A DNA stretch of 57,597 bases, from the IMG/VR virus record IMGVR_UViG_3300037119_000577, positions 1 to 57,597 of that record; one strand, written 5' to 3'. Within the stretch, counting starts at the first letter, position 1. The number at the start of each line of letters is the position of its first letter. A program made the translations under genes and the position numbers. The notes below the pieces were generated by a model, which was not told the origin of the DNA, searched no databases, and worked only from the letters and a program-made list of their open reading frames with translations. Of the stretch, positions 49,539-57,428 are shown in pieces. Source of the DNA: a virus (Duplodnaviria > Caudoviricetes).

Positions 49539-49703
49539 ATGATTTTATGGGTGCAGTTTAGAACGCCGAATACTCCCGATAGACTCGAGGGCCGGCACGG
49601 TCGGTGGGGGTTCGACACGGCCGGGGCCCTTTATCCGGCCCGGGGCTGGGTTAACGCGAGATACGTACCCTACTGCCCCACCGTCGGCATATTTTGGGCA
49701 TAA
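49539..49703 (+). CDS. CPT-motif microprotein (54 aa)
   Basis: GGAGG RBS; MILWVQF...YVPYCPTVGIFWA. Confidence 0.8.
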   Translation: MILWVQFRTPNTPDRLEGRHGRWGFDTAGALYPARGWVNARYVPYCPTVGIFWA

Positions 49704-49718
49704 TTAAGGAGTCCGTGT

Positions 49719-49895
49719 ATGTGGGTTCATAGTGGCGGCCCCGATTCGCCGGTTAAGTTGCTCAGGTCGGGAGATATGGCGGGCCTACAAAATCCGATGT
49801 ACGAACCTTTCTCGGCCTGGCTTGCGCGCACTTGTTCATGGGACTTCTGCTGCCCCACCGCGCAGCTTTTCAATCGGGGAGGGTCGAACCTGTGA
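49719..49895 (+). CDS. CPT-motif microprotein (58 aa)
   Basis: AAGGAG RBS; MWVHSGG...WDFCCPTAQLFNRGGSNL. Confidence 0.8.
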   Translation: MWVHSGGPDSPVKLLRSGDMAGLQNPMYEPFSAWLARTCSWDFCCPTAQLFNRGGSNL

Positions 49896-50128
49896 AAATC
49901 GTGCGGCCGATTCGTATGATGCGGGTAACGGCGGACGTAGGGCCAAAATACTGGTTGGTTAAGGTCGCGCCGCCCGGGCGTACGAACTGGATGCACGGAC
50001 TCTATTACTTTATTATGCGCGATGGGGGTAGTAAGCTTGATACGATTAGCGAACGCGCTCTAATTGAGTTCGGCTATCGGCCCGTTTGCGAACTCCAGGC
50101 CCTTTTCGCTATTGAGGAGACCCCGTGA
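49892..50128 (+). CDS. CPT-motif variant microprotein (78 aa)
   Basis: GTGA overlap; ...YRPVCELQALFAIEETP. Confidence 0.7.
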   Translation: MKIVRPIRMMRVTADVGPKYWLVKVAPPGRTNWMHGLYYFIMRDGGSKLDTISERALIEFGYRPVCELQALFAIEETP

Positions 50129-50373
50129 AATTCTTCCCCACGCAAGTCGACGACATAATTATGAATTTAGGCGGTAAGTACTTCTTGGTCGGAGAGCGTA
50201 TGTATAAGGAGAAATACTCCTTAGGGGCGCCGTGGGACCTCGTATCGCCGTCTGGGAGTTCGCCGTTCGGCCCTACAGAGTGGGACCGGTGGCGGAAGAG
50301 TTACGATCATCGTCTGATACGGTGTGATACGGTAAAGCTATTTTGCGGAGGGACCGATGTACGTAATCCATAA
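50125..50373 (+). CDS. CPT-motif microprotein (82 aa)
   Basis: ...RLIRCDTVKLFCGGTDVRNP. Confidence 0.75.
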   Translation: MKFFPTQVDDIIMNLGGKYFLVGERMYKEKYSLGAPWDLVSPSGSSPFGPTEWDRWRKSYDHRLIRCDTVKLFCGGTDVRNP

Positions 50374-50536
50374 ATCAGATGGGCGCGTGGAAAGGTTGTA
50401 CCGGGGAGACTACGGACAATTTTGGCGTGCCGGAGTGGGTCCGCATCATGTACGTCCGCTAAAATTGTGGACGTTCTATTGGTACGTTCACATTTGTCCC
50501 ACGGTGGAGATGATCATATCTAAGGAGAATTTCTAA
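50357..50536 (+). CDS. CPT-motif microprotein (59 aa)
   Basis: GGAGG RBS; MYVIHK...YVHICPTVEMIISKENF. Confidence 0.8.
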   Translation: MYVIHKSDGRVERLYRGDYGQFWRAGVGPHHVRPLKLWTFYWYVHICPTVEMIISKENF

Positions 50537-50739
50537 TGCGGATCGGTGATCTTCAAGTGGGCGATATTATTTGGGAAACCGAGTCCGGACTACTTAAAGG
50601 GGGCCTAGTTCTGAATTCTCGTCATTATATTTGTGAGACGAATCGTTTGGACCTACCCGCTCACGACCTAGATATTTCCTATCTGCGTGTAGTGCGGTGC
50701 CCGCTCTTGACGAAACTTTTCCCGGGGAGTCCGCTTTAA
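50536..50739 (+). CDS. CPT-motif variant microprotein (67 aa)
   Basis: TAATG overlap; ...RVVRCPLLTKLFPGSPL. Confidence 0.7.
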   Translation: MRIGDLQVGDIIWETESGLLKGGLVLNSRHYICETNRLDLPAHDLDISYLRVVRCPLLTKLFPGSPL

Positions 50740-50749
50740 AATTATGTTC

Positions 50750-50776
50750 TAAAGTTTTTCCGCGCGGGGTCGATAA
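50750..50776 (+). promoter_or_regulatory. sigma28 promoter upstream of the MoxR ATPase
   Basis: TAAAGTTT-N11-GTCGATAA. Confidence 0.8.
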
Positions 50777-50830
50777 GAAGTAAGTGAGTTGCGAAAGTCC
50801 ACTATTAATATCTTTACCGGAGTAACGTCG

Positions 50831-56304: not shown

Positions 56305-56444
56305 TCGTTATCTGGGAGTACGCCGGTAAAATTTCCCACCGATATACGTGGACGGACGTGACCTATGTGCGCGCCTCCTACGCAATAGGTCCGCACCACT
56401 GGACCCCCTGGTGCCCTACGGTGGCGCTGATGGTGGGCCTATGA
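56301..56444 (+). CDS. CPT-motif microprotein (47 aa)
   Basis: MIVIWEY...TPWCPTVALMVGL. Confidence 0.82.
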   Translation: MIVIWEYAGKISHRYTWTDVTYVRASYAIGPHHWTPWCPTVALMVGL

Positions 56445-56605
56445 GGTACGTTGTATGGTTTAAATGGTCCGGCGATCCCGGAATCCGCGGAAGCGGGCTA
56501 CCGGCGTTCTATCAGTGCGATCCTATCTCGCATAACGTGCGCGAGGGATTGCGGGTCCCCTGCTGCCCAACCATCTCCTGCTTCAACTACAAGAGTCGCA
56601 TATGA
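56441..56605 (+). CDS. CPT-motif microprotein (54 aa)
   Basis: MRYVVWF...VPCCPTISCFNYKSRI. Confidence 0.8.
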   Translation: MRYVVWFKWSGDPGIRGSGLPAFYQCDPISHNVREGLRVPCCPTISCFNYKSRI

Positions 56606-56769
56606 AGCCCTGGTCCATGTGGTTGTGGGACTGTATCAGGGGCGATTGGCGATGGGTCGACGCGGGTAAACTGTGTCACGACATTCCACCGCACCTGGTG
56701 TTCGACGCGATCAGAAACCATAACTCGGTGATCCGGATCGCGTGCCCCACCACACGGCTACTCGTTTAA
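56602..56769 (+). CDS. CPT-motif microprotein (55 aa)
   Basis: MKPWSMWLW...RIACPTTRLLV. Confidence 0.8.
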   Translation: MKPWSMWLWDCIRGDWRWVDAGKLCHDIPPHLVFDAIRNHNSVIRIACPTTRLLV

Positions 56770-56795
56770 TATCATTAACTATTTAACATTAATAC

Positions 56796-56825
56796 TTGAC
56801 AGAGGTTATTTTTGGGTGATATAAA
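56796..56825 (+). promoter_or_regulatory. sigma70-type promoter
   Basis: TTGACA-N18-TATAAA with TGn extension. Confidence 0.65.
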
Positions 56826-56838
56826 GAACAAATATCGG

Positions 56839-56967
56839 TTGTGGTTAGGCCTCGCGGCAGAGTACCGCGGGCACGGTATCATCTACGCGCACGGGTTCAG
56901 ATCCTGGGTTAGTGCGTCAACCTGGTTTCCGGCCTGCTCCACGGTCGAGATCTTCGGTGGCATATAA
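56839..56967 (+). CDS. CPT-motif variant microprotein (start uncertain: TTG 56839 or 56812)
   Basis: (M)WLGLAAEY...FPACSTVEIFGGI. Confidence 0.65.
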   Translation: MWLGLAAEYRGHGIIYAHGFRSWVSASTWFPACSTVEIFGGI

Positions 56968-57136
56968 TCACCTGTGGCTATCGCGCGGTAAGCGGGTCCG
57001 CACTCGTCGGGATAGGTACTTTAAAAACTTCTGGGACGAGTTGGAAGATACTTGCCTATATCTCCAGGCGCCCGGCCCCGATCGATTGGCGTGCGACCTC
57101 TGTTACCTTTTCCTGAATAACGAGGATACCCGATGA
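56957..57136 (+). CDS. CPT-motif variant microprotein (59 aa)
   Basis: MAYNHLWL...RLACDLCYLFLNNEDTR. Confidence 0.7.
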   Translation: MAYNHLWLSRGKRVRTRRDRYFKNFWDELEDTCLYLQAPGPDRLACDLCYLFLNNEDTR

Positions 57137-57282
57137 ATAATTCCCTATATATGTACTGGTGCGTTTACAAGGGCCAAGTTATTAAGATCGAGAACCCGCG
57201 TACCCGATCGGGCTTCTATTTTAAGCGCGAGGAGCAAGTGTGCGAAACGATTCAGCTATTCTTCGTGGGAGACTTCCGCTAA
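57133..57282 (+). CDS. CPT-motif microprotein (49 aa)
   Basis: MNNSLYMYWC...EQVCETIQLFFVGDFR. Confidence 0.82.
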   Translation: MNNSLYMYWCVYKGQVIKIENPRTRSGFYFKREEQVCETIQLFFVGDFR

Positions 57283-57428
57283 TGTTCTGGTATCTCGAAC
57301 ACCGGATCGGCGATAATATGCGTAAACCTTACAAGTATTTAGGCCGCCCTTCTACGAGTCAAGTCTTTTATTGGTTCCATCCTTCCTTGGTTCCCCTCTG
57401 TTTGACGTGTAAACTCTTTAGTGTTTGA
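57282..57428 (+). CDS. CPT-motif variant microprotein (48 aa)
   Basis: MFWYLE...VPLCLTCKLFSV. Confidence 0.78.
   Translation: MFWYLEHRIGDNMRKPYKYLGRPSTSQVFYWFHPSLVPLCLTCKLFSV

Follow-up and report, generated by a model that had tools for sequence, protein, structure and literature searches.

The internal proteins of phage T4, which are few, small and diverse, share a short N-terminal capsid-targeting peptide that is cut by the prohead protease; their locus is polymorphic, and their bodies include an anti-restriction protein. Encapsulin cargo peptides are short C-terminal peptides on unrelated cargo that dock inside an HK97-fold shell. Large DNA viruses and archaeal viruses carry multigene families of many small, divergent host-interaction paralogues near the genome end, which are read as the outcome of an arms race. 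The locus compared with these systems here is an array of microprotein genes at positions 49539-57428 (+ strand) of IMG/VR virus record IMGVR_UViG_3300037119_000577, the 57,597 bp of which are called the window. Together with five genes on the − strand, the array encodes 30 proteins of 39-93 amino acids (aa) whose shared core ends in the motif C-[PED]-T-x-x-[LM]-[FLM].

The T4 signal is N-terminal and carried by few proteins, whereas the motif of the window is C-terminal and present in 30 copies. The encapsulin peptide, like the motif of the window, is short and C-terminal, and the major capsid protein (MCP) of this phage belongs to the HK97-type SU10 family; this is a likeness by description. 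The combination that marks a targeting peptide, a short terminal peptide on unrelated bodies, is seen in relatives of this phage, whereas the bodies in the window are paralogous. Viruses with large multigene families have genomes much larger than 57.6 kb. We know of no precedent for a 57.6-kb phage in which 30 copies of a single 40-residue design take up 8.9% of the genome, nor for a clade with genome-specific C-terminal motifs across neighboring small genes.

The gene layout has its own counterpart in the Schitoviridae, or N4-type phages, whose gp24/gp25 region, like the array, has small open reading frames (ORFs) around an ATPase gene and a gp25-like gene. To our knowledge, no function is known for the gp24/gp25 pair. 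In Acinetobacter phage Presley, small hypothetical ORFs are followed by the ATPase gene and then the gp25-like gene, and no common C-terminal motif was found in these small ORFs. N4-type phages differ from the window in their giant virion RNA polymerase, which is not evident in the window because its largest ORF encodes 1094 aa, and the MCP and portal of the window match SU10-type models. The core genes of N4-like phages include gp24 and gp25, which are called middle transcripts, and in a roseophage of N4 type, virion proteins confirmed by mass spectrometry are encoded beside gp24/gp25 homologues; the portion of this source used here reports no paralogous small-protein expansion (PMC4193335). 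The N4-type counterpart of the array is the middle-gene region, and the array itself may by analogy be part of an early or middle operon.

A Family of Thirty Microproteins

Comparison of the genes with one another and with shuffled sequence shows 30 protein-coding paralogues of one orphan microprotein family, which are apparently translated. Twenty-five lie, translationally coupled, in the one + strand operon that makes up the array, and five, beyond those noticed in a preliminary description of this DNA, on the − strand. Together they occupy 5,106 nt, or 8.9% of the genome. The members, with their motifs and, where informative, their Shine-Dalgarno (SD) sequence or leave-one-out rank (see below), are as follows.

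49539..49703, + strand: microprotein 1, 54 aa, CPTVGIF, SD GGAGG
49719..49895, + strand: microprotein 2, 58 aa, CPTAQLF; sequence in public protein collections
49892..50128, + strand: microprotein 3, 78 aa, GTG start picked by SD, CELQALF; atypical, leave-one-out rank 8
50125..50373, + strand: microprotein 4, 82 aa, CDTVKLF
50357..50536, + strand: microprotein 5, 59 aa, CPTVEMI; N-terminal extension of about 20 aa ahead of the Trp strand
50536..50739, + strand: microprotein 6, 67 aa, CPLLTKLF and internal ICETNRLD; atypical, leave-one-out rank 45
52296..52439, + strand: microprotein 7, 47 aa, CPTVGLF
53590..53727, + strand: microprotein 8, 45 aa, CPTVALL
53724..53864, + strand: microprotein 9, 46 aa, CETCKLM; 44% identical to microprotein 10, E 2e-9
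53861..54013, + strand: microprotein 10, 50 aa, CPTCKLF
54013..54150, + strand: microprotein 11, 45 aa, CETCRLF
54676..54957, + strand: microprotein 12, 93 aa, CPTLFLM
54958..55194, + strand: microprotein 13, 78 aa, CPLVRLM
55181..55339, + strand: microprotein 14, 52 aa, GTG start, CPTSAML
55343..55489, + strand: microprotein 15, 48 aa, CETADMF
55489..55644, + strand: microprotein 16, CPTVRLF; ATG TTT TAG, then 48 open codons
55625..55789, + strand: microprotein 17, 54 aa, CDTCEML
55789..55959, + strand: microprotein 18, 56 aa, CPTVELF
56301..56444, + strand: microprotein 19, 47 aa, CPTVALM
56441..56605, + strand: microprotein 20, 54 aa, CPTISCF; atypical, leave-one-out rank 4
56602..56769, + strand: microprotein 21, 55 aa, CPTTRLL
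56812..56967, + strand: microprotein 22, 51 aa, TTG start (TTG at 56839 gives MWLGL...), CSTVEIF
56957..57136, + strand: microprotein 23, 59 aa, start uncertain, CDLCYLF
57133..57282, + strand: microprotein 24, 49 aa, CETIQLF
57282..57428, + strand: microprotein 25, 48 aa, CLTCKLF
6754..6942, − strand: microprotein 26, 62 aa, CETAQLL; directly after the C-terminal piece of DNA polymerase
9573..9695, − strand: microprotein 27, 40 aa, CPTVEMF
9701..9853, − strand: microprotein 28, 50 aa, CPTIKLF
9853..9972, − strand: microprotein 29, 39 aa, CPTVNML
16287..16463, − strand: microprotein 30, 58 aa, CPTIDMF; upstream of the helicase gene

Microproteins 27-29 stand in tandem at 9573-9972 (−), just upstream of the polymerase. 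Microprotein 6 contains both ICETNRLD and RCPLLTKLF, each resembling the motif, and may have arisen by fusion or internal duplication.

The 25 tags named in the preliminary description are all found in open frames of the + strand, 1-12 residues before the stop. A strict form of the motif, C-[PEDSL]-[TL]-x-x-[LMI]-[FLMI], which leaves out the named tags CPLLTKLF and CPTISCF, occurs 23 times in 49494-57430, always on the + strand (6, 10 and 7 times in its three frames) and never on the − strand. Shuffling this region 500 times under a first-order Markov model gives a mean of 0.39 and a maximum of 3, so the expected excess over shuffled sequence and other frames is present. Each of the 23 occurrences has at least 30 open codons upstream and no more than 12 residues to the stop, an arrangement with a mean of 0.042 and a maximum of 1 in the shuffles. 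Over the whole window the strict motif is found 31 times, against 2.7 in 200 shuffles. A frame of 110 codons at 13859 with the sequence CPTCLLI was rejected as a family member (E 5.2 with the family hidden Markov model, or HMM).

Alignment of 29 DNA sites gives 2.0 bits at codon positions 1 and 2 of the conserved residues and 0.1-0.2 bits at most third positions, and residue 2 of the motif alternates among Pro, Glu, Asp, Ser and Leu codons. The region 49400-57597 contains no direct DNA repeat longer than 19 nt and no tandem repeats. Because third positions are free, residue-2 codons switch and DNA repeats are absent, what is conserved is the protein and not the DNA, as the preliminary description had held on the strength of synonymous changes. 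Its term 'hypervariable', taken as active diversification, fares differently: the data at hand give no sign of it, in DNA repeats or in population variation. The array region is letter-identical, with no other letters, in three soil-metagenome runs at depths of 145-522, and the fourth of the four runs compared holds small fragments only, identical to the array. No population variation is thus seen across these runs, three of which are not independent because they are possibly the source samples. For a diversity-generating retroelement there is neither a repeat of the required kind in 49400-57597 nor a reverse transcriptase among the ORFs scanned. No RNA run is listed as carrying the array region.

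The ORFs bear the marks of genes. Of the 30 starts, 18 are preceded by GGAG or GAGG at a distance of 4-17 nt; among 350 other start-like triplets of the region the figure is 31. The nearly gap-free chain of overlapping ORFs seen earlier is borne out, since 23 of the 29 + strand junctions overlap or abut (11 by 4 nt and 6 by 1 nt) and only three leave gaps of 30 nt or more. With a codon-score model trained on 19 long genes of the window, the annotated frame scores highest in 20 of the 30 genes when stops are ignored and in 27 when stops are counted. The mean codon score is −0.04 for the microproteins and 0.28 for the long genes, and because of this distance the composition of the microproteins must be called unusual; they are enriched in Trp (4.9% vs 1.0%) and Cys (3.5% vs 0.7%). 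An isoelectric point of at least 7.7 is found in 25 of the 30, and the grand average of hydropathy ranges from −0.78 to 0.53 and is negative in 23. The 1-12 residues past the motif mostly overlap with the ribosome-binding site and start of the next gene. The motif is therefore effectively the C-terminal end of the functional protein.

Microprotein 16 begins ATG TTT TAG, with the TAG at codon 3 identical in three assemblies, and is probably a broken (nonsense-interrupted) or restarted copy. Reassignment of TAG was considered and rejected, since TAG is a normal stop here, terminating 2 of 44 long ORFs and 5 of 30 micro ORFs.

In the alignment of all 30 members, the N-terminal Trp (W5) and the motif Cys (C38) are invariant and the motif Thr nearly so, which places the Trp-containing N-terminal strand of the preliminary description in the whole family. 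The core of about 40 aa consists of this hydrophobic strand, a mid Trp and the motif; some members add N-terminal extensions or long middle inserts. The bodies had been described as not aligning. They are indeed strongly divergent, but they align in part: BLASTP finds 183 of the 435 member pairs at E ≤10, the best of them (E 2e-9) with 44% identity across 41 aa, and in several the alignment spans the whole protein at E 1e-4 to 1e-3. The family HMM, built from all members, recovers exactly these 30 among 1,367 stop-to-stop frames, with the weakest member at E 3e-4 and the next frame at E 0.68. This recovery is circular, and each member was therefore left out in turn; the omitted member then ranks first among non-family frames in 27 of 30 cases and reaches E ≤0.01 in 13. 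The three that do not rank first have the oddest motifs in the family. The 30 proteins are, by these comparisons, true paralogues and not unrelated bodies to which a tag has been added.

Searches for Known Families and Folds

The family matches nothing described in the collections searched, as the preliminary description had supposed. Pfam-A, PHROGs v4 and NCBIfam give only scattered single-member hits at E 0.002-0.3, each to a different unrelated family, and PDB chain sequences give no match to the microproteins at E up to 10. From 5.8 billion proteins a word-indexed search retrieved just three, all from the window's own contig. With 1.84 billion representatives as target, an exhaustive HMMER profile search yielded five at E ≤0.001, three of them the window's own; the other two, a 1,572-aa ankyrin-like repeat protein and a 180-aa triple repeat (P0006), were rejected as lifted by repetition. 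P0006 is made of three tandem units, each W-x-Q-Y-x-S-R-x-V-C-P-T-N-x-L-F-V, and is treated as chance, yet the likeness is curious. Members score only 25-43 bits against their own profile, and because diverged kin of such members would fall under the threshold of so large a library, these searches do not prove that relatives are absent.

Other routes gave the same result. No match was found with blastn and tblastn of the array and the MCP against GenBank phages, no usable hit in the ESM Atlas for one window member, no member in the whole records of five MCP relatives searched with the family profile (0/5) and none in loci L002-L018 searched with the family HMM. A full-text literature search found no expanded tagged microprotein family in a phage among the papers listed. 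The novelty lies at the level of family and architecture, for which no curated family, solved structure or paper was found.

Structure prediction, suggested earlier as a way to look for a shared fold, yielded no confident one. AlphaFold2 models of two members, built from shallow paralogue alignments, have predicted local distance difference test (pLDDT) values of 55.2 and 52.6; the hints they give, of a hairpin at the N terminus in one and of a short helix covering the motif in each, are of low confidence and too weak for use. Known small motifs do not account for the pattern. The order Trp ... Gly-x-aromatic ... Trp ... Pro is one that we take, by eye, to resemble a WW domain, and Pfam WW is not among the three families hit at E ≤1 by the 25 members scanned. 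A zinc ribbon or knuckle is contradicted by the single Cys of 9 of the 30 members and by the presence of CxxC in the motif of only 6. Sliding-clamp-binding peptides follow a consensus of the QL[SD]LF type; the first-position Gln is missing from the window motif, which has Thr or Leu there in all 30 members, and the clamp-binding assignment, a likeness only, was rejected for lack of this defining residue. The resemblance of the relatives' tag to the first helix of helix-turn-helix domains, likewise only a likeness, was also set aside.

Array Neighbors and Their Relatives

The array is interleaved with genes for an AAA ATPase, a DUF2201 protein, a ClpP-like protease and a 113-aa acidic protein. 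In 305 phage records the DUF2201 protein has N4 gp25-like counterparts, each less than 60% identical. The ORFs between the microproteins are as follows.

50831..52069 (longest ORF from 50789), + strand: AAA ATPase, PHROG 1297
52100..52299, + strand: 66-aa ORF without the family motif (...CAPLKFF... near its end, by eye), missed by the family HMM
52439..53593 (longest ORF from 52400), + strand: DUF2201 protein, metallopeptidase-like N domain and von Willebrand factor A (VWA)-like domain, N4 gp25-like
54143..54679 (longest ORF from 54032), + strand: ClpP-like serine protease, PF00574 E 9e-20, head-maturation-protease PHROGs
55963..56304, + strand: acidic protein of 113 aa without the motif, with a counterpart in locus G001 at 42% identity (best tblastn segment)

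A search with the MCP gave 665 relatives at E ≤1e-10, the best 87%, 86% and 81% identical, and Logan/ENA contigs of 52-55 kb (P0010, P0011 and P0013) carry MCPs 75-87% identical to that of the window. An MCP alignment led to 15 IMG/VR loci and an ATPase alignment to 34 more. Other searches added little: single MCP or ATPase sequences found no related loci in IMG/VR, and the DUF2201 protein or its alignment found one distant contig only. A first metagenome scan returned nothing and a second only distant ATPase relatives at 23-29% identity; a GTDB scan returned three contigs of metagenome-assembled genomes (MAGs) in Ignavibacteriaceae, Saccharibacteria and Vicingus bins, which are not read as host evidence. 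An alignment of the 113-aa protein together with a back-translated pattern search found only G001 again and a chance hit on an unrelated high-GC contig. In the ESM Atlas, a relative's tagged protein matched only unnamed phage clusters.

The closest of the 15 retrieved IMG/VR loci is the 17.2-kb fragment G001 (L004/L023), in which the MCP is 73%, the portal 59% and the terminase 44% identical to those of the window. Its ATPase and DUF2201 protein are each 33% identical, and the ATPase, DUF2201 and ClpP-like proteins together span 28-34%. Compared with head genes at 59-73%, the non-structural operon appears to be either far faster evolving or exchanged. Its order is nevertheless that of the window: small ORFs, ATPase, DUF2201 gene, ClpP-like gene, small ORFs, the 113-aa counterpart, and small ORFs to the contig end. 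At least nine of these small ORFs (58-80 aa) have the near-C-terminal motif [IVL]-P-[DN]-[ST]-[AY]-x-[LV]-L, usually followed by Gly, and these nine also have an N-terminal Tyr-rich strand and an invariant mid Trp. This build parallels the Trp strand, mid Trp and C-P-T motif of the window; G001 shares its operon position and architecture in gene order, size class, aromatic N-terminal strand, mid Trp and Pro-containing C-terminal motif.

Among 13 loci with an ATPase at least 29% identical to that of the window, 10 hold three or more ORFs with a common near-C-terminal motif. Beyond G001, the 13 comprise the following.

L002/L021 contig: 3 ORFs, F-E-[KR]-A-V-L-G-[LI]
L025: 3 ORFs with a common near-C-terminal motif
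L026: 3 ORFs, [SC]-P-[LI]-E-L-[LI]-A
L028-L033: 6, 4, 3, 6, 6 and 7 ORFs, L-[ST]-x-L-E-[KR]-[IV]-[IV]-[YF]-x-[IV]
L024, L022 and L027 (the other three of the 13): one such ORF, none, and a different set of four paralogues

One GTDB MAG contig has eight ORFs ending x-[LV]-L-Y-G-[KN]. None of the 21 loci with more distant ATPases has a tag of this kind. Because the tags vary synonymously in every genome examined, including switches between the TCN and AGY codons of Ser and between the CGN and AGR codons of Arg, they are peptide-level motifs.

In the relatives the motif sits on bodies of different kinds. When the tags were removed from 32 proteins of seven loci with the L-E-[KR]-type tag, seven bodies formed one cluster and 25 were singletons (E 1e-3). 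The cluster consists of Ala-rich proteins of 130-190 aa; among three proteins of this type scanned with Pfam, one hits DUF6931 just under the cut-off and two have no hit, and the counterpart on the L002 contig hits Imm5_like (PF21805) at E 5e-12. Imm5-like and DUF6931-type proteins of the relatives thus share their C-terminal motif with the neighboring small ORFs. Six small tagged bodies scanned in Pfam gave only sub-threshold hints of KOW, SH3 and ProQ-C-like domains. The window has no Imm5-like protein among the ORFs scanned, and its microproteins match neither Imm5_like nor DUF6931. The relatives thus present one C-terminal motif on bodies without detectable mutual similarity, at least two of which are clearly different in kind, and a motif shared by dissimilar bodies suggests a portable functional peptide and not a fold core.

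Some further features of these loci deserve mention. Three of the loci with distant ATPases have other shared C-terminal endings; sets of four or five small ORFs with shared endings occur at 667-2799 of L040, 700-2535 (+) of L043, 4129-11135 (+) of L027 and in L041, one example being ...A-x-x-F-K-L-T-W-L at the very end. Shared endings among neighboring small ORFs may be widespread. In four relatives a conserved sigma-70-like promoter (AAAGTTTGAC ... TATTATA, by eye) directly follows a tagged ORF, at about 7935-7980 in L028, 7944-7990 in L029, 7739-7785 in L032 and 3451-3495 in L033; by position it stands just upstream of the ATPase gene in L028, L029 and L032. ClpP is missing from the flanks of most tag-bearing loci, including L025-L033, and was accordingly rejected as a universal partner of the tag.

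A Possible Docking Motif and Its Alternatives

A portable docking or sorting helix, borne by lineage-specifically expanded small proteins and directed to one common partner, is the preferred explanation of the motif, with a probability of roughly 0.4. Across the clade, many small proteins encoded around the ATPase/gp25-like pair would end in one short, genome-specific C-terminal motif. In relatives this motif reads as a capped amphipathic helix on unrelated bodies, and the helix may bring diversified small binder or effector bodies to a common partner. Candidate partners, at comparable low odds, are the ATPase/VWA-peptidase pair, the capsid interior (for co-injected cargo) and a host hub protein. 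The preliminary description had likewise proposed a library docking on one partner. The constant motif, the divergent bodies and the portability in relatives speak for that proposal, and the part of it that falls is the picture of independent bodies in the window, which form one paralogous family.

Several results weigh against this explanation. An hhalign comparison of the window family with the G001 family gives a probability of 0.05%, no cross-genome BLASTP pair of tagged proteins falls below E 0.2 whereas within-genome pairs reach 1e-4, and the 40 best window hits of three foreign-tag HMMs include 0, 2 and 0 family members, respectively. The association between tag and ATPase/gp25-like genes is in part a product of the search, which retrieved the loci by their ATPase. 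The N-terminal Trp and mid Trp are conserved alongside the motif, which fits a plain fold core equally, and the two AlphaFold2 runs gave low-confidence models only (pLDDT 55 and 53). The link between the tags of the window and of its relatives thus rests on synteny, size, architecture and a likeness by eye (Pro, a small polar residue, hydrophobic residues and often Gly); homology is statistically unsupported. A continuum drawn by eye from C-P-T-V-x-L-F through [SC]-P-L-E-L-L-A and [IV]-P-D-S-A-V-L-L to L-E-K-I-I-Y-G-I was rejected, as profile tests gave it no support. Tags that are uniform within a genome and different between genomes fit co-evolution with a receptor and independent founder expansion equally.

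Because the N-terminal Trp and mid Trp are shared as well, the tag of the window could be part of a conserved mini-fold. The Trp strand, mid Trp and C-P-T-x-x-L-F would then be the skeleton of one tiny domain with no common partner and no sorting, and the 30 paralogues independent, fast-diverging binders for host takeover or anti-defense that arose by repeated old duplications. The joint invariance of W5 and C38 fits this well, as do the pairs that align over their full length. The N-terminal aromatic residue and the tag also change together, from Trp with C-P-T in the window to Tyr with [IV]-P-D in G001, as packing partners would, and similarity is higher within than between genomes, as lineage-specific expansion predicts; the unsupported homology of tags across genomes points the same way. 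What makes a fold core unlikely, if still a serious contender, is the occurrence of the relatives' motif on mutually dissimilar bodies, including Imm5-like/DUF6931-type proteins of 130-190 aa, together with the lack of a confident autonomous AlphaFold2 fold from these shallow alignments.

The docking-helix explanation has a bolder form, which we regard as speculative and quite improbable. In it, the tag would be a genome-specific 'address' helix that sends a library of small, fast-evolving proteins to one receptor, and the tag would be the same within a genome and different between genomes because tag and receptor co-evolve. The cargo would be 30 mini-binders here and Imm5-like and other small proteins in relatives. 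For the receptor, the inside of the capsid, receiving a co-injected anti-defense arsenal, is the most attractive choice, with a MoxR-type ATPase/VWA-peptidase machine as the other.

As a special case of docking, the motif could be a cargo signal by which the small proteins enter the procapsid, to be injected later along with the DNA, and the prohead protease would then be the ClpP-like protein. That protein does match head-maturation-protease PHROGs, and in L002-type relatives the tagged ORFs and ATPase follow the portal and MCP on the same strand. The Imm5-like body on the L002 contig would suit an anti-defense cargo. Virion proteins of a roseophage are encoded beside gp24/gp25 homologues (PMC4193335). 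These points are offset by an array transcribed divergently from the head genes in both the window and G001, by the absence of ClpP from the L025-L033 flanks, and by the sigma-70-like promoter between tagged ORFs and ATPase in four relatives, which suggests early or middle expression; capsid loading is accordingly very unlikely.

Poorer still are the prospects of a substrate library, in which the metallopeptidase/VWA protein or the ClpP-like protease would recognize or cleave the motif, for maturation, timed degradation or processing like that of ribosomally synthesized and post-translationally modified peptides (RiPPs). Two protease-type genes and an AAA ATPase gene are interleaved in the coupled operon of the window and of G001, and the motif Cys is invariant and its Thr nearly so. 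A variable middle between conserved ends recalls RiPP precursors, whereas lengths of 39-93 aa and full-length paralogy are atypical of them. No RiPP-type modifying enzyme (radical SAM, YcaO, lanthipeptide synthetase or similar) was found among 43 scanned ORFs, which are part of the window's ORFs; the tags of relatives lack Cys, and ClpP is absent from most tag-bearing flanks.

A nucleic-acid signal (promoter or translational coupler) or a set of spurious ORFs is scarcely credible and already largely refuted, for although the motif lies 29-45 nt before the next start in 10 of 11 hand-measured junctions and post-motif tails carry the next gene's SD, its third positions hold 0.1-0.2 bits against up to 2 at positions 1-2, residue 2 switches among P, E, D, S and L, all 23 strict hits lie in open frames of at least 30 codons spread over the three + strand frames, five members are elsewhere on the other strand, and there are no DNA repeats.

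Small ORFs are the least understood part of phage genomes, and here one family of them offers a clear sequence handle. If the motif is a docking or address signal, it would provide a rule for spotting functionally linked microproteins in a large uncultivated clade of soil and water podoviruses, a portable tag for delivery to a phage or host machine, and a collection of natural mini-binders that conflict between phage and host has shaped. Should the motif be a fold core, the array is still a striking expansion of one gene family in so small a virus and offers new folds of 40 residues. On either reading, the conserved N4-type gp24/gp25 pair gains candidate clients.

Genome Context

Classed as linear and given a CheckV completeness of 100%, the window looks like a complete podovirus genome of 57.6 kb; it comes from soil metagenomes. 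Its portal and MCP match SU10-type models, and a large terminase is also encoded. Among the long ORFs taken as genes, those between about 49.4 kb and 0.5 kb are on the − strand, and those from 49.5 kb to the right end on the + strand. Replication is represented on the − strand by genes for DNA polymerase A, an exonuclease subunit, a helicase and a Sak4-like protein. The polymerase is split into two pieces, ORFs 8371-9651 and 6939-7823 (−), with an HNH/endonuclease VII-like ORF at 7790-8374 between them; further HNH ORFs lie at 3868-4581 (NUMOD4) and 17806-18309 (AP2). The ORF at 18296-19081 (−) matches PHROG 1706, labeled CRISPR/Cas system associated (E 1e-10). The ClpP-like or head-maturation-protease-like ORFs number two, one at 54143-54679 (+) in the array and one at 10643-11365 (−) in the replication-side module, where it adjoins a collagen-like ORF of tail-fiber type at 9966-10679.

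Adjoining the array, the ORF at 48090-49439 (−) encodes a 449-aa protein of PHROG 4756 (function unknown), to which hypothetical proteins of large phages of Vibrio, Rheinheimera and Aeromonas are related. Polymerase-like motifs can be made out in it by eye, and a stretch ...GVHDSF... weakly resembles the large subunit of the N4-type RNA polymerase II of Presley (E 0.001, pairwise). No match to it was found among PDB sequences.

Both ends of the window have unusual sequence. A run of about 17 G at 63-79, near the left end, could be real or an assembly artefact. The right end, 57555-57597, is a 20-nt inverted repeat with a 3-nt loop; contigs of two runs end at 57565, and one short contig folds back at 57536-57597. 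A terminal hairpin, a physical end and an assembly effect are all possible readings of the repeat.

The palindromic 8-mer TATTAATA (search pattern WATTAATAS) occurs at 12 sites window-wide against 1.5 expected: 31-39, 128-136, 4908-4916, 5080-5088, 12427-12435, 14797-14805, 25285-25293, 34429-34437, 40858-40866, 50802-50810, 57447-57455 and 57523-57531. Several sites are in gaps between ORFs, one of them within the 91-nt gap ahead of the ATPase gene, and the element is a candidate phage promoter or operator.

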